Assembly: GCA_905331295.1 (NCBI GenBank) | Contig: CAJNYD010000407.1 | Location: forward strand, 372,001 to 417,398 | Length of the DNA: 45,398 nucleotides | Reading direction: 5' to 3' | From: Rotaria socialis | Taxonomy: Eukaryota | Part shown: positions 5,471 to 36,801 of the stretch, piece by piece | Position numbering within the stretch: the first letter of the stretch is position 1 | Layout: each line of letters begins with the position of its first letter | The notes under the pieces: generated by a model | Database searches by the model: none | What the model saw: the letters and a program-made list of their open reading frames with translations, nothing else | What the model was told of the DNA's origin: nothing | Made by a program: the position numbers and the translations under genes

Positions 5471-7091
5471 TTCTATGATATTGCTCGTCGACTTCTGGTG
5501 ATTTTATGAATATGAGAATGAATTGATGATAGTGATAGGAAACTGCTATAAATCGTCACTGATCGTTGTTTCTAACCCACGTACACAAGCGCACCAATAT
5601 ACTTCATCCAATATATACCATGTTTAGGACAACGCAACGTTGCAATCTAAACGGGAAAGTGTAATGGCAGCAGTCAACGTCACAATGCATGGATGTGCTA
5701 TTGATGAAATATAATGCGTTCGACAAATAGATGTCGCACATTTATATAGAAAAAGTATACCACTAATATACGCAGCATTCTTATCGTTGTTCTTGTATAG
5801 CTACATCGTTAAGAAATCTTGACTAGTTAATATAGAAAAAAGAACGCCGATGATTTAACAAAGAATCTGATAATCTGTTATTCAACTTCAACAATAAAAA
5901 GGATATTCCTATGTTAAAACATTCCATTCAATCAAAAAATGTATGGTGAAGATCTCTCCAGTAAAGAAAGTACTTACATCAAACAAAAAATTCTAACATA
6001 GAAACAATTAATAACTGATTTTAATAGAATCCTTCTGAAAAAAAATCTGTTTTGACCAGTTATAAAATTTTCCATTCCAACGAAATTAGAAAAAAATATA
6101 TAGCTAAGAAAATATGATGTTAAATATCAAATAAGAACATACGAATTAATTTTTTTAATGTAAAAGATAAAATAAGAGAAACAACATTATATGAAATTTC
6201 AGTCATTTTATATATTACGAAAAACAAAACAAGAATTATTTCTTTTATTGAACATTAAATACTTCTAGAGATCTCAATTTTTATTATTTTCTAATCTATT
6301 CTAGCTAATGAGTATCAATTGCATAACTCGTTTTTTTAAATATTCACGTTTGTTAGGTAGTGATCAATTGTTGTTTTCCTCATCTACAAATACTCCATTC
6401 AATGGATATCTATTTATTTTTATACTTATAATTTTTATGGTATTTTTCAATATCATAAATATGAAATCTCTATTGTACATAGCACTAAATCTCATGAAAT
6501 AAAAACTTCCTAATAGTATACAATTTATACATTTATATTTTTTGTTTCACGAAAAAAAATCATTCACAAACCAATATTCATCGTGGTATTTTTTATTATT
6601 TAATTCAAAGGGGATTTCCCTGTATACACATACATTTGTAATTTAGAATTGTAAGATAAATCAGCTAATTTCACTTTGTAAGACACTATTATAAAGATCT
6701 TTTTGAATCCGAAAAAAAAAGAAACAATGTTTTATTTGAGACCACATCTACAGAAATTCTATGTTAGCATATGAGATCATTCTGTTTTCACCTCAAGGTC
6801 TACGTTTCTTTTCTGCTAATTTGATTACGTACTTCTCCCATCAGTACACAAAATGATCATCTAAATTGAAACTCATTGCATAATCTTTTACGCGACAATA
6901 TTGGCATCTAATTTGGCTTATTCTCACCTTGATATACAATATTCGAATGGAAAGAAACATCATCACGGATCAACTTGATTAGTGTGTTCAATAAATTGCT
7001 TACCGAACAACAATCGCCTTCCCGGAGAGCAAGAAAAAAAATTCTTAATAATTTTTCCCTTATGTATTTTATCGAAAGAAAAAAAACGACG

Positions 7092-27874: not shown

Positions 27875-28448
27875 GATCAATAGATGATCTTAAAACAAAA
27901 AACGTTGAAATGTGCTGTTGTATTTAACAAAAAATATGAAGAATAATCTAGAAACAAATATATGAGTCAATATTTTTTTAAGAATAAAACAAGCCGTTTA
28001 GAAAGGCGACGAGAAGGAAGAAAAATTAGTAATCGCGTTTCTAACTTTATCGATATGCAGAGTAACATATTGAGATCTGTTGTGAATAGAATGAATGCCT
28101 TTAAAACAAAGAAAAGCTAATCTATTCCTTAGATCTATGTGCAGAATAATAATAATGTCTAATTGTGAACAGTAAAATATCAAAAAAAGAATAACTAGCG
28201 GATGGTAACAATGCAAAAAAAAAGAATTTTTCTATTCAATATGCATTTTACTTCAGCATTCTGCATTAGTATGAAGAAAACAAAAGACACATATTGCGTT
28301 GAGTTTTTTTAAACCCAAAGAAAAACTCTCACAAAAAAAATTTAATTCGATTTCAAACAATATAATAACAAAACTATCATAATTCTATGCCATAAAATGT
28401 CTTAATCAATCTAAATAAAGCGCCAGTCAATGCTTTGCTTATCTTTCT

Positions 28449-30488
28449 ATGCAAGAAAGTTCGACAGAATCTAATAATATTAATGAACTAGATTTCGATC
28501 CTAATAATAATTCTTTCAGACCTTGTGTTTATTTTCTTAGCTCATGGTTAGATAAATATAAAAAAAGTAAACTAGAATTCTATTCTGTTACATTCGGTAT
28601 ATCGGGCATTAGTTTAATTGCTCTTGGTCTATGTGTTTTTATTATAATCTATACAGCATATGATTATTATGGAATAAATAAAATTAATTGTTCCATTGTA
28701 AATATAACACATACGCATGTGAAATTATGTGAAGCACGTCGGTGTCAAATTTTTAATTACTGTATTCCTTACATATGTACAAGTAAGTAAAATTGGTTTT
28801 GTTTCAAAGAAAAACAGAAAAAAAACTTATTTTTAACTAGTTGTGTTTGTACACTATGATTACAATAATCTTTCATATGAATCAAAACTTTTCCCATTTA
28901 ATCCGAATATAAATTCATCATGTTCTTATGAACCATCATCATGTACATCTCGTTTGCGTATTCAACTCGAGCAAATAACATTTCTAAAAAAGCTCGATTT
29001 TAATCGTTCAAAAATAGATCAATGTTGCCTTCATTCATTAACTCAACAGCCTATAATATGCAAGAATCATCTTAATTCTACGCAATATTCTATTAGTATT
29101 CTATCTATTATTATTTGTTTTTTAATAGGCTTAATTTTTATTTCTATTGGAATAATAACACAATTACATCTTAATGATTATTTGAAATCTTCTCATAAGC
29201 ATGACGAAGACTTTCTTGATACAATACTAAATTTTCATTTTAGTAATGGTACATTAGGATCAGGTATTGAAAGAGCAACACCCGTTAATTATGATATATT
29301 AACACAAGGACTAAGTCATCAAAATACACCATCCACAACAAAGATTCATCAAAATGATGATTTACTTTTATTTGATATTGATGAAGAAAATGAAATATTT
29401 CAAAAAGAATGTTTACATATTAATCATCAAGAGAAGCTACAGAATGAAATTATTCGGTTAGTTCAAAATGACGTCCGCGTTAGAATATCGTATAGAAAGT
29501 TGCAGAAGATTTTCTTTATTTATACACTGAAAAACGAAAAGAGTCTTCCTCAATTTTCTAATACTTGATCATTCTCGAGTAGATTTTGTGATATAGGGAT
29601 TACAACGAAATTAGTGCTGTTTAACAAAAAAAAACAAACGTACAATTCAGTTCACTAATATTCTAAAGTAAAAGTATCAGCTTTATTCATGAATGTGTGA
29701 TGCGATTATCATACTTCTGTGTTAAGATTGGAACAGCAGCAAGACCTGATATATTCAGGAAAAACTATTTTTGACAAAGCTTGTATCTATGTCAAGTTAC
29801 AAATCGAAATTAGAAAGTGTATTTTTCAGGTAGCACTGAAAATGATCATAGGATTCATTATTGACACTAACAAAAAAATACAGATTATTCACGGTAATAG
29901 ACGGGCGACAAAAGTTCGTACCAGACTATGTACAGTTTATTTGAGTTTAGTTAATTCACAGATTCAACTCGTAAGTAATGCATTAGTTGTGATGTTTCTA
30001 GATACTTACTACAATTGCTGTTAATCGAAGAGACATTCACAATAATTTCATAGAATAAAAGAGATGAACAGGTTGATTCCGAATATTACTCTAGCGTCAA
30101 TTAAAGTAAAATGAAATACTATTATAAAGGCTAGTAAAGCAAAAAAAGGAAACATTCTAGAAGTTATCTAAATATCGATATTATTACTTTTCCTATACTG
30201 AATTTTGTTTTTACCTTCTTTAGACAATATGAATTAGGCAATGAAGAAATAAAAGCTACATTGAAGACAATTGAAAATGAATTTCAACAACAAAAAAATG
30301 GAAATTTACCAGAAAATTCCATTGAACGAATTCGAGATCTACTAGAAAAAGTCGATCATCTTGATCTTTATTTTCCAACAATACATCAACAAATATCAAT
30401 GGATGAAATATCCAATTCTATAAGTCTCGACCATCAACCCTCACCTATTTCTGTTTTACATCCACATGTTCATTTTCGCATGAAATAA
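28449..30488 (+). CDS. Two-transmembrane protein with Cys-rich extracellular loop, BK channel beta (KCNMB)/TipE-like; 3 exons (28449-28782, 28841-29456, 30224-30488)
   Basis: TM1 (VTFGISGISLIALGLCVFIIIY), Cys-rich loop with N-glycosylation sequons and motifs YICTIVFVHY and NSSCSYEPSSC, TM2 (ISILSIIICFLIGLIFISIGII). Donor CG|GTTAGT at 29457 splices in frame to the acceptor at 30223, explaining ORF 30261-30488; AATAAA at 30484 and 30513. Gene is well supported, family is tentative. Confidence 0.7.
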
Positions 30489-30603
30489 AATGGTTTCTTT
30501 TTCCTTTTCTTTAATAAAACAACAATTTCAAAATGTTGTACTTCTTCTTATGAATAACTATTAAAAACAAACAAAACAGCTTACAGAAGAACTTATTATT
30601 TCT

Positions 30604-32134
30604 TTAATGACTTAAACTCTGGTTGTGCTCTAGAGCTAATTGATCAAATGATGATTCAATAGCATGAATTTTAAGATAATCAATTTCGAGTGGATGCAAT
30701 TGACCAGCAATAACAAGTGAATGTAACGGACGACCTAAATCAACTTCATCAGCCATTCTACGTAAAGTTGTTGTTATAAATTTTTCATCTGACCAACCAA
30801 TACGTGCTGCACCTACACATAGTGTTTTATCGTTGATGACTAGAATAGAAAGTAATTTACATAAATATTAATCAGACTTTACCAAAACAAAAATGATTTT
30901 ATGTGTCTTCTAAAAAAATCGTATCTTATTAGAAGATTCTATTTTCAAAGATTATATCATAGCTGCTCGTACTATCTTACTTTGATAAAAAAAAAAGAAC
31001 GATAGTAATTTTCTCTACGGACAGTAGGAGTGGTGGTACGCAATCATCAGTAGCATAGACTATAATTTGATTGTTCTCGGATTAAAATTCATACGAGAAG
31101 TCATCTGCAAATAGTATGATATATCGCATTTTATTCAGTGATGCTTAGATTGTTTCAAAGGTTGACCTCTAACGTCATGATTATTTGTTAAATGAATATT
31201 TGTCTTCATTCATCGCAAGTAACTATTTGAATGTCAAAAAAATTAAAAAAAACTTACTGTCTTCAACTTGTAACTCTTTAGCTGATTCAAGAATTTGTGA
31301 AGCTGCTTGTGATGTTGTCATAAAACGAGGTGGTAAATATGTTTTAGTTTTCCTTTAAAAACTTTTAATTAAAATTTCAATACAACAACCAAAAGTCAAC
31401 AACAAACTTCATATAACTAGTTTCATCTTGTTCTTTTATTTTGATATCTAAAATTTTCAATTTGATAAAAATCTATCGATTGAAAAACAAAAATGTAAGA
31501 ATCTAACCTAATAAACAAAGTGTATGCAGACCACGTCGTCGATTAGCAACAATTTTTTCACAAAAACTTGTTGGTCGCCATGTATCTGTCCAAAATACAA
31601 TGGAAACTGTTTCACCAAAATGATATAACTTCGCATAAAAATACACATTATATGTATACTTTTTATTTATCTAACAAAATAATCTTCTACCTGCAATCCA
31701 GAACTACCAATAGCATTCATTATTGAAGCATTATGAATTACTTTATATGGAATATTAAGTTCAACAGCACGTAAAATTAAATCAGTATGAGTTGTTGCTG
31801 AAAGTGGATCACCACCGACAAGAAATGCAATATCGTAATCTCGAGCATTAGCTAATATTTTATCTTTACATGCCCAAAACAAAAAAAAACACAAAGATTT
31901 AATGATTCATGTTTATTTTAGACATGTTGTTTTCTCACCTGCCGAAAGTTCAACAAGTTCTCTATCAGCTGCTATTATCGAAATTCCTAAATATTCTTCT
32001 AATGTCTTTTGATCGACTTGTAAAATAGTTGTATAGGTTTCCAAATAAACTTCTTTACAATTTTTAATGATACGTAAACCTTTAACAGTTATATCATCTA
32101 CATCAGCTAAACCGAGTCCAATAAAATAGAGCAT
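30604..32134 (-). CDS. DPH5: Diphthine methyl ester synthase, multi-exon
   Basis: [96 protein letters not shown]. Confidence 0.96.
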
Positions 32135-32201
32135 ATCTAAAAACAAAGAGTATGAATTATATCCTTTCTTGTATTTTATTCATAAGAAAACAAAAAGCTA
32201 A

Positions 32202-32691
32202 TTATGTTAACATAGCGTCTGATGTATTTAAAGTAATTTTCTTTTTTTGTTTTTTTCCTGGTGTTTTCGATTTTTTGTTTTTTGCAATTCGTTTTACTAC
32301 GGCTTGTTTAGCTTGTAAACGTTTTCGTTGACGACCACTTAACCATGATGGAAATTGACCATCTTTATTTTTTAATGTACGAACATTGTATTCCGTTGTT
32401 GTATTTGTACTAATTTGCATCTCTTCTAGATAAAATCATATTTTTAATTCTTTGTATATATTTTTTTCTTAAAACTTACTATCATCATCTAATGAGTCAT
32501 TCTTTGCCGCTAATAAGAAGAAAAAAATTGAAACATAATTATTTTACAACAGAAAAAAAAAAGATTTCTTTACGTATGAATGTATCCTTCTTCATTGATG
32601 CCAATCGTTTTGCTTCATCCTTCTTCGATAGTTTGTCTCGAAGAAGTTTACGCATTGCACGCATATGTTTACTTCGTTTACTTTTAGCCAT
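32202..32691 (-). CDS. LLPH: Protein LLP homologue (LAPS18 family); 3 exons
   Basis: MAKSKRSKHMRAMRK N-terminus and RTLKNKDGQFPSWLSGRQRKRL motif, basic C-terminus. Confidence 0.88.
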
Positions 32692-32896
32692 CTAAAAATT
32701 CAAATGAAAGAAAAATACAGATTATATTTGTTAAGCTTTTCTTTATGAACATTCTATCTCGTGCTAAAAACAAAACATCTGTGGTTTCATCGAAATCGAA
32801 ATTCCAAACTACATTAATGAAATAAACAGATCTGTCATATTTGTTTTTGTTTTAAAAATATTGTTGTCTATACAATTAAGAGTATATTGTAATTAA

Positions 32897-35492
32897 TCAC
32901 AAAATTTGTGTTGAAGCGCTTTGACTTTGATAAATAATGGCACCAACAAAATTGACACCACTTGCTAAAATAAATACTGGAAACCAGCGACCATGACTGG
33001 CAACAACTAATTCAGCGGTAACAGGACCGGCTAATATTCCAGGTATTGTTGCAAGAGTATTCGATATAGCGAATGTTATACCAGCATGATTAGGTGCAAT
33101 ATCGGCATGATTTGATAGATGACCAGCGGAATTGCATGCACTTAAACCCATGCTTATTGATATAAAACTAAAATATAACATTAAAATCTTAGATTTTAGA
33201 TAAAAAAAATAAAGCTAAAATAGACATTACACAACAGCAAGTAGAAGATTATCAACTGAAATAAATAGCAACATGAATAGAGCAGGTCCAAGTAAGCCAA
33301 TAGCAGTCATTAATCGACGAACAGATAAAACTGTCCATCGATTTTGAATAAGTGAATCAGCGAAGTGGCCGGCAGCTAATACAAATAGAAACAATAATAA
33401 GTAAGAGTATCTGTAACGTAAACAAATACTACGAATAAAAATGTATTTTCATAGCGAATAACGACTTTTCTATCATTGTTTACTCATGTAAAACTTGTCA
33501 ACGAATTTATGTAACCTTGGGCAAGTTTGAGTACTACAATCACTGTTGTGTCTGGATCAAAAAACTATTTGTATGAAGTCAATCGGAAGCTATTGTTTAA
33601 TGATAAACAAGTTCAAATAAATATCACTATAAACTAACTAAACTTATAAGACAGCAAGACTATTTACTTACAAATTATATTCCGATATAATGCGAGTTCA
33701 CTGCTGAAACTAATACACATACACATATATACGAATGAGAATGTCTCATTGAAGCGTCTAGACTGAGAGCATACTAGCACATCCAAATTTAGTATTTTAA
33801 GTAATGCATTTATTATCAGACTAAGTATTTTTATTTAATCATAATAATGATATATTATGATTAAATTTTACTTTCATGAACTATCTCAGTAGATTTAAGA
33901 TAGGTCTAGGTCACCCTAAAAGCACATATTAATCTATATCTTTTGATTATGACATGAAGATTCATGTAATATGAAAAATATGAAGTATCAGTCTTTCGTC
34001 ACTATCTTTTTAAAAATAATATTAATCATATTCAAAATGAAGACATACACAAAAACATGGAGATACAACGAATGTTTTTATCTTCAAATATTTTCTCAAT
34101 AGAAAAAAACTATTTTAGACTACGTCATCTTTGTTCATTTAATAATATCTTGTCAAACGCATGATACAATGTTCTGATGTGACAGTATATTAGATAAACA
34201 GACTTTTTCATTACTCACTCTACAATATTCTTTCGCGAAAAATCTATGAACTGCTTCAGACAGGTTAGCAGTTCACTCTGCAATGTTTCCTATCATTGTC
34301 AATCGAGCGAATGACAAAATCACCTTATCGAAGAAACACCAATAGCAAACCTATCATTGTTTCTGTCTGTCTGTTTTAAGTTAAAGAAAAAAATCGAATT
34401 AATTTTTTATTGAAATAATGACTTCATCCTAAGATATATTTTCTGATTTAACTTACCGACACCTAATAAACAATTCATGACATATGGAAATGCTGTAAAC
34501 GATAAATTCGTCGGATCTGCATCGAATGTTTTGGTTAAATACGATGGTAACCATACCATAACAATATAAGATGACCAATTCATTGAAAAATGTGCAATAT
34601 AAATTGCCCATAGTGGCCAATGTGAGATAAATTCAATCCATCTATAACTTTTATTTCCTAACTAAGAAAAACAAGATATATTATATATGATGAATATCTA
34701 TTGTGAATTGATAATTACTTTTGATGATGGATGAAGAAAGGCTTCATCAGCGCCAACATTTCCAATATTAAGATTCAAATCGCGATAACTTACAATCCAT
34801 AAAAATGTCCACAAAAAACCAATAAAACCAAAGAAAAAGAAAACAGTACGCCATGCTATATGAGGACATATCTAAGACAAAAAAAATCAAATTAAGTGTG
34901 ACACAAAAATCAACATTGTCTTTGTCATACCAATGCTGCAAAAGTTTGTCCCACTGAGCCTAATGCTATAAGATAACTAAACGACCTAGATCGTTCTTCC
35001 ATCGGTACATAGTTACTGAAGACATGAAATATCGTTGGTAAAGCTTTAAATAAAATAAAAATTTAGTTGTTATTCTATTTTATGTTTCTGCATTTACCTA
35101 AACCTTCACCAAATCCTAGAGCAATTCTTGAAAAAATAAGTAAAAAAGGTAACGGTGCCAAAAACGGTGTCGCAAATGTTACTAATGACCATGTGAAAAC
35201 TGCTAAAGCAAGAACGGCCTTTGTGCCAAAACGTCGTACAAATATATGAGCAAATAATTGGCTAGTTAAATAACCGATTGGAAACGATGATAAAATATAA
35301 CCTTGCAAAGGTAAATTCCAATTTAATTCTTTTGCCATAGGAATAATTGCAACTAAAATAAGTAGAATTTTTATTCATTGAAAATCTTCTGCAGAAATAC
35401 GCGACTTTACTTGGCATAATCGCTCGATCTGCAGCATTTATGAAATTTGCAAGCGAGCAAAGTGTTACGGTGCGAGATTTTCCGAACGACAT
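32897..35492 (-). CDS. MFS anion:cation symporter family (SLC17; SLC17A9/sialin-like) transporter, multi-exon
   Basis: NFINAADRAIMP, GYILSSFPIGYLTSQ, SRIALGFGEGL, WPLWAIYIAHFSMNWSSYIVMVWLPSYL, NHADIAPNHAGITFAISNTLATIPG. Confidence 0.88.
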
Positions 35493-35919
35493 TTATTTAA
35501 AAAAACAAAAAGGCGAATTTCGTTTATCCATCAATATATGTGTATTCATCAAAAATTATTCTATTGGTTAGTCCTAGCCAGAAAAAAAAGTCACCTTCAT
35601 ATCGTTAGATGTCGTGTTAAAAATAAATTGATTCGAATATGTTGATTTTTCACTAATTACTTTCTATAGTTACAAAATAATTTTTTATTTTCAAATTAAA
35701 TAATATTAATAGAAAAGAAGAACGGACCCTTTCCATTCAACTGTCCTCCTTAATTGCATTCAACGAGATGCGTCGGATTGGTAAACTAACGATAAACATG
35801 GAGTCTAAATCACATACAACGACAAACATTATATTGTTGTGTTTTGCTCTTAGAATTTTTATAGAATTTCTTCGTTTCTTTTAAGATCAGTTTTATAGTA
35901 CCTTTTACAAAAAAAAAAC

Positions 35920-36607: not shown

Positions 36608-36801
36608 AATATGCATGTTTAAATGAAAAAAAATTGTTTCTTTTTGTGTCTTGTATCATCATCGTTTTGTTATTCTAAACAAAAAAAAACAATAACAACA
36701 AAGGCTTACAAGAAGAAATGTTTTGGAAAAAATAAAGAAAACAGCATAAAAATAAAAATATCTGATTTATGTTTTTGTTTTCTAGATAGAAAATAAAAAT
36801 C

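Follow-up and report, generated by a model that had tools for sequence, protein, structure and literature searches.

Spliced-leader (SL) trans-splicing was reportedly described in bdelloid rotifers by Pouchkina-Stantcheva and Tunnacliffe in 2005. According to PMC1925144, which cites that paper, over half of all bdelloid transcripts reportedly bear the leader, and an EST survey of the monogonont Brachionus found no leader in the account available. Operons resolved by such leaders take several forms in the available extracts of the literature. In Ciona intestinalis, intercistron-less operons place the upstream poly(A) site directly against the downstream SL acceptor (Satou et al. 2006, PMC1488885). 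Caenorhabditis has SL2-type operons, in which roughly 100 nt of RNA separate the cistrons and a dedicated SL2 leader is used (PMC1488885), and a minority class of SL1-type operons with little or no intercistronic DNA (PMC1488885, PMC12582326, bioRxiv 10.1101/2021.09.24.461604), while chaetognath operons were defined genome-wide by gaps under 250 bp together with SL reads and include 18% of genes (PMC12460157). For rotifers, operons are entered as "not determined" in Table 4 of Marletaz et al. 2008 (PMC2481426), and the 2025 chaetognath paper names rotifers in connection with the patchy spread of trans-splicing and operons, with no rotifer data in the portion available (PMC12460157). Our literature search found no rotifer operon, though subscription papers and the supplements of bdelloid genome papers may mention them, and such an operon is apparently undescribed so far.

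We analysed a 45,398-nt stretch of Rotaria socialis DNA (the window; contig CAJNYD010000407.1, 372,001 to 417,398, with positions below counted within the window), in which a preliminary description had proposed that the neighbouring genes LLPH and DPH5 form an operon. The junction between them is most likely an SL-resolved operon. The upstream cistron, LLPH (32202..32691, minus strand; 490 bp, 123 aa), has exons at 32691-32574, 32509-32480 and 32425-32202 and introns of 64 and 54 nt, which were placed by protein match, not RNA; the spliced gene equals the public Rotaria socialis protein P0077 (123 aa) with 0 mismatches and carries the Pfam LLPH domain (PF10169). The downstream cistron, DPH5 (30494..32136, minus strand; 286 aa, 5 introns), extends from an ATG at 32134 to a stop at 30606-30604 and, when spliced, equals R. 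socialis P0064 (286 aa), also with 0 mismatches, with a match to Pfam TP_methylase (PF00590). Its five GT..AG joints and its tail are present in RNA contigs, which place the DPH5 poly(A) site at 30494, after ATTAAA at 30515.

The two genes are co-oriented on the minus strand, with 67 nt between the LLPH stop and the DPH5 ATG in the window sequence. Coordinates given in the preliminary description proved exact: the stop TAA lies at 32204-32202, the spacer at 32201-32135, an AATAAA poly(A) signal at 32180-32175, and the AG of an acceptor at 32138-32137, two letters before the DPH5 ATG. This AG lies 65 nt after the LLPH stop and follows a pyrimidine tract, forming an unpaired 3' splice acceptor (32137..32150, minus strand), and no donor-like GT was found in the spacer (best score -4.5, splice-site matrix). 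In the same matrix, the DPH5 acceptor was outscored by all 13 training acceptors and fell at the 87th percentile among all AG, though a matrix of 13 introns (rows used: DPH5, LLPH and SLC17) is too small to decide. The AATAAA-acceptor-ATG motif alone is not rare (1 match in the window vs. 1.41 expected from 100 dinucleotide shuffles), and a signal with an end-positioned acceptor occurred in 0.095% of 20,000 letter shuffles of the spacer. The junction stands above chance because it is seen in RNA and recurs in all eight related loci that hold it.

Transcript evidence came from RNA contigs, not raw reads, of four runs (X1-X4) among the eight that cover part of the region, aligned over 30350-32215. 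The contigs, whose label as RNA is a guess of the software, represent transcripts, since the five DPH5 introns are skipped and X1 bears poly(A) tails. Contigs of three runs (X1, X2 and X4, not X3) reached the DPH5 5' end. The X1 contig, which agrees fully with the window over the pieces listed, matches the genome as far as 32138 and then carries 17 foreign letters; the X4 contig, from a second study and slightly different in sequence, also ends its match at 32138 and continues with 11 foreign letters. With the shared AG, read on the minus strand, these letters are exactly the final 19 (X1) and 13 (X4) of the 23-nt SL exon that Table 1 of PMC3795323 gives for rotifers. The 19 visible letters equal the only rotifer SL in that table, the one leader compared, and the X2 contig begins at the same base, 32138, with 2 extra unassigned letters. 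No 12-mer of the SL was found in the window, where the SL motif with 3 mismatches was also unmatched, and the motif had no match in the 10 related loci. Since the contigs end in SL letters at 32138 and the leader is not in the window, the DPH5 mRNA is trans-spliced at 32137/32136.

These results bear out two points of the preliminary description, which had taken SL trans-splicing as established in bdelloids and had named 32136 as the base to which a leader would be joined: the 23-nt leader found here is the one known from bdelloids (PMC3795323 Table 1, PMC1925144, PMC2481426 Table 4, as far as available), and the join was detected in two runs from two studies. The opposite outcome it had considered, a genomically encoded DPH5 5' exon without SL, was not seen, as all three runs reaching the 5' end stop matching at 32138. 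A related reading, in which the 5' exon of DPH5 is normally encoded in the genome and cis-spliced, or DPH5 is translated from an unprocessed bicistronic mRNA, and the SL contigs represent an uncommon form or arose in assembly, draws on the use of assembled contigs in place of raw reads; we regard it as extremely unlikely, given that the leader is on the main DPH5 contig of both X1 and X4, that the three runs stop at one and the same base and that the spacer offers no donor-like site. A leader alone does not prove an operon, however, because so large a share of bdelloid transcripts reportedly carries one.

We also located the 3' ends of LLPH transcripts. The spacer (32135..32201, minus strand) is almost wholly LLPH 3' UTR, covered by LLPH 3' contigs of X1 and X4 to 32140-32138, with the DPH5 acceptor sitting where the LLPH mRNA ends. 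Poly(A) tails are known from contigs, not reads, of one run (X1), in which six tailed LLPH contigs end at 32157 (2), 32153 (1), 32140 plus one other letter (2) and 32138 (1). The three proximal ends (32153..32157, minus strand), marked by non-templated T runs, fall 18 and 22 nt after AATAAA (32175..32180, minus strand) and 16-20 nt before the SL junction, while the three distal ends (32138..32140, minus strand) fall 35-37 nt after the signal, at the acceptor and one base short of the junction. The latter distance is farther than is usual between AATAAA and a poly(A) site. X4 contigs of LLPH stop at 32140 (with one extra letter) and 32157, with no visible tails. Internal priming was ruled out as the source of the tails, as the DNA beyond each site is not A-rich. 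The extra letter at the 32140 ends fits an allele with CAG for TAG, a form seen in relatives, and the missing final G in the acceptor-end contigs may reflect either ordinary cleavage or a 2-nt oligo(dT) shift, which can hide the AG in Ciona (section 14 of PMC1488885, as available). The 67-bp separation in the preliminary description therefore holds from stop to ATG and not for the mature mRNAs, whose gap is about 0-20 nt, the spacer being mostly LLPH 3' UTR.

LLPH and DPH5 are likely transcribed as one pre-mRNA that is cut into two messages by trans-splicing and 3'-end formation. We infer a precursor crossing the junction because LLPH RNA can end at the acceptor only if transcription has run past it, and because the DPH5 precursor needs upstream RNA with a branch point; the same argument for a shared precursor is made in section 16 of PMC1488885, in the text available. 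Polymerase would start upstream of LLPH, either in the SLC17-LLPH spacer or in the head-to-head region between SLC17 and RPS8 (both described below), and run through the junction, with the LLPH 3' UTR doubling as the DPH5 outron. Trans-splicing would then free a capped DPH5 mRNA and leave the upstream RNA ending at the AG. The LLPH 3' end could form in two ways: cleavage directed by AATAAA, 18-22 nt beyond it, or release when trans-splicing cuts at the AG, with debranching and tailing to follow; RNA freed at the AG might be tailed after debranching or trimmed by cleavage after AATAAA. If cleavage occurred first, the 16-20-nt stub remaining before the acceptor would probably be a poor substrate, with too little room for a branch point, so that the balance between two competing reactions would determine how much DPH5 is made.

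A promoter of its own inside LLPH could instead drive a monocistronic, trans-spliced DPH5, whose outron would overlap the LLPH 3' end, the two genes being merely tightly packed. The SL is common on bdelloid mRNAs (PMC1925144), and internal promoters feeding trans-splicing have been described in flatworms and tunicates (PMC12582326), in the portions of these papers available. No contig spanning LLPH into DPH5 exon 1 was found among the 28 of 64 pieces listed, as this reading would have it, though such a negative is weak since contigs drop rare forms; and in X1 and X4 the LLPH 3' end has a much greater summed contig depth than DPH5, though such depth cannot rank genes. However, LLPH is only 490 bp long with two minimal introns, its transcripts have to cross the acceptor, and the tight gap is kept in four lineages. 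Comparison across lineages gave the LLPH introns no more similarity than shuffled sequence (z -0.6 to 1.1; three of five loci parsed), unlike the head-to-head region, so that there is no sign of a promoter inside LLPH, although a promoter within the LLPH exons may be compatible with unconserved introns. Taken with these observations, an internal promoter appears improbable, and we retain the single precursor.

Two regions upstream of LLPH were considered as the start of that precursor. The first is the 205-nt spacer between LLPH and the next gene (32692..32896, minus strand), which is conserved in non-coding blocks (z 12.6-25.3 against three loci) and ends in an AG that adjoins the LLPH ATG; the AG is at this place in the window and, as TAG, in all eight loci holding the site. 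The preliminary description mentioned neither this acceptor nor the LLPH mRNAs ending at the DPH5 acceptor; its reading is otherwise supported, with the shared pre-mRNA as a probable last step. Rfam gave no match in the window at gathering level, nor in five loci at E 0.1, so a known ncRNA does not explain the conservation of this spacer. Its blocks may be 3'-end signals or a 3' UTR element, the LLPH promoter, or an RNA of another kind. Beyond it lies an MFS transporter gene and possible first cistron (32897..35492, minus strand; 0 mismatches over the first 391 aa of P0078), which we presume to be SLC17-like, the profile search giving only MFS_1. The second region is the 427 nt between the head-to-head genes SLC17 and RPS8 (35493..35919, no strand assigned), which has non-coding conservation with locus L008 (z 20.9) and is likely a bidirectional promoter.

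The precursor may accordingly have either of two layouts, with two genes transcribed from the SLC17-LLPH spacer or three from the head-to-head region, between which the odds appear even. The longer unit, SLC17-LLPH-DPH5, would extend the single-precursor explanation and is not exclusive of it, with the head-to-head region shared with a second operon, RPS8-PSMD2. The invariant AG before the LLPH ATG argues for it, as do the position of SLC17 close upstream of LLPH (119-247 nt in the loci measured) and the lack of any AG within 30 nt before the SLC17 ATG. Against this, the SLC17-LLPH spacer is as conserved as the putative promoter and contains, at 32809, a weak donor-like GT (score 3.4), so that an LLPH promoter and short 5' exon may lie within it. 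Weighing these points, we hold the three-cistron form to be about as probable as its shorter counterpart. Its proposed partner is suggested by a PSMD2 start 16 nt after an acceptor-like AG and 194 nt after the RPS8 stop. The RPS8-PSMD2 junction (36608-36801, plus strand) has AATAAA at 36751 and the acceptor-like AG at 36784-36785, with gene order and acceptor kept in L008 (about 5030-4745, minus strand), and is a candidate second operon across the head-to-head region.

Conservation was assessed with a metagenome scan, which yielded 10 LLPH loci; two weak bacterial matches from GTDB genomes (L011 and L012) were dropped as chance, and viral contigs gave no match. DPH5 lies directly downstream of LLPH in eight of the ten, while L005 ends inside LLPH and L002 is without DPH5. 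The eight loci represent three lineages besides the window, with 82-91% nucleotide identity in DPH5 exon 1, so the adjacency that the preliminary description had suggested looking for in related genomes is conserved. Spacers between LLPH and DPH5 in these lineages measure 59, 61 and 101-103 nt, and all three contain AATAAA and the pyrimidine tract-AG-AT-ATG ending. The remaining locus, L002, has a second arrangement, SLC17-LLPH-glutaredoxin, in which the LLPH 3' UTR keeps the U-rich tract and AATAAA and the acceptor is absent at that place (one locus). Presumably the bdelloid genome duplication underlies this pattern, the two arrangements being its two copies with differential loss.

Several features were noted around the second arrangement. 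Between LLPH and glutaredoxin, where DPH5 is missing, L002 has a 402-nt stretch of 47% GC (about 1160-1560), which may be what remains of a mobile element. An intron-rich gene lies within about 100-140 nt downstream of glutaredoxin in L002 (2130-2226) and L009 (about 6460-6600); its four exons match Pfam Pyrid_ox_like (PF16242) weakly and in order, exon 1 had no plasmid match, and the gene had no significant match in the window. In L002 this glutaredoxin junction has an acceptor-like AG some 10 nt beyond the end of AATAAA, making it a candidate junction. In the window, a gene without Pfam match (28419-29568, plus strand) lies antisense between DPH5 and glutaredoxin and is conserved in L006, L007 and L009. 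A small secreted-looking precursor at about 25680-25180 (minus strand), also found in L009, has three RFVHG repeats, each after K, and resembles an amidated neuropeptide precursor.

Public gene models join the same neighbours. SLC17 is fused with LLPH in P0078 and P0087, and LLPH with glutaredoxin in P0088-P0090 and P0099, while P0069 (Rotaria sp. Silwood2) fuses SLC17, an LLPH-like piece of 24 residues and DPH5, with a score reached by 0 of 2,000 shuffles. Fused neighbour models in Rotaria and Adineta annotations are expected where a gene starts at an unpaired acceptor. In A. vaga, a named DPH5 model and an LLPH-glutaredoxin model are on contigs of different size, and protein searches named no stand-alone Adineta LLPH. 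The junction explains fused models in bdelloid annotations, and such models in Rotaria and Adineta may be a quick route to bdelloid operon candidates.

An operon at this locus is expected in a group with widespread trans-splicing, and the junction provides both RNA-level support and a template (AATAAA, acceptor and ATG, spanning about 50 nt at most) with which such junctions could be counted genome-wide in data that already exist. It is also relevant to the number of times operons arose in Gnathifera, where chaetognaths have them and Brachionus showed no leader in its EST survey. The occurrence of AATAAA-proximal and acceptor-abutting ends at one junction also allows a direct test of a question raised by Ciona, whether trans-splicing can make an upstream 3' end. 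More tentatively, and with some doubt, near-zero-gap operons might be numerous in bdelloid genomes, with the trans-splicing cut itself producing some of the upstream 3' ends and its rivalry with AATAAA cleavage deciding how strongly the following gene is expressed. Cistrons would be gained and lost behind existing promoters, as in the absence of DPH5 behind the second LLPH copy. If this were true, a splice acceptor would be all that incoming foreign genes need for expression.

We compared the junction with the described systems as far as the available text of the sources allows. Like Ciona operons, it appears to use the ordinary SL, has upstream 3' ends that vary by a few nt (PMC1488885), and brings a poly(A) site against the acceptor, seen in three of six tailed contigs of one run and 1 nt short of the junction. 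Unlike Ciona, where 16 of 18 cases are without AATAAA and poly(A) usually joins the G of the AG (PMC1488885), the signal here is conserved, the acceptor-side LLPH ends are without the G, and half of the tailed LLPH contigs end 16-20 nt upstream of the junction. Chaetognath operons resemble it in belonging to a gnathiferan relative, in comprising housekeeping genes and, apparently, in having no operon-specific leader, though they were defined across a genome (PMC12460157). The gap of about 0-20 nt and what appears to be the standard leader differ from the C. elegans SL2 type (PMC1488885). Caenorhabditis SL1-type operons share the near absence of intercistronic DNA, a canonical AATAAA in the upstream cistron and, as it appears, a general leader (PMC1488885, PMC12582326, bioRxiv 10.1101/2021.09.24.461604), although these belong to another phylum with another leader and to a minority class beside SL2 operons. 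By this comparison, the LLPH-DPH5 junction, with its AATAAA, appears most like the SL1-type operons of C. elegans.
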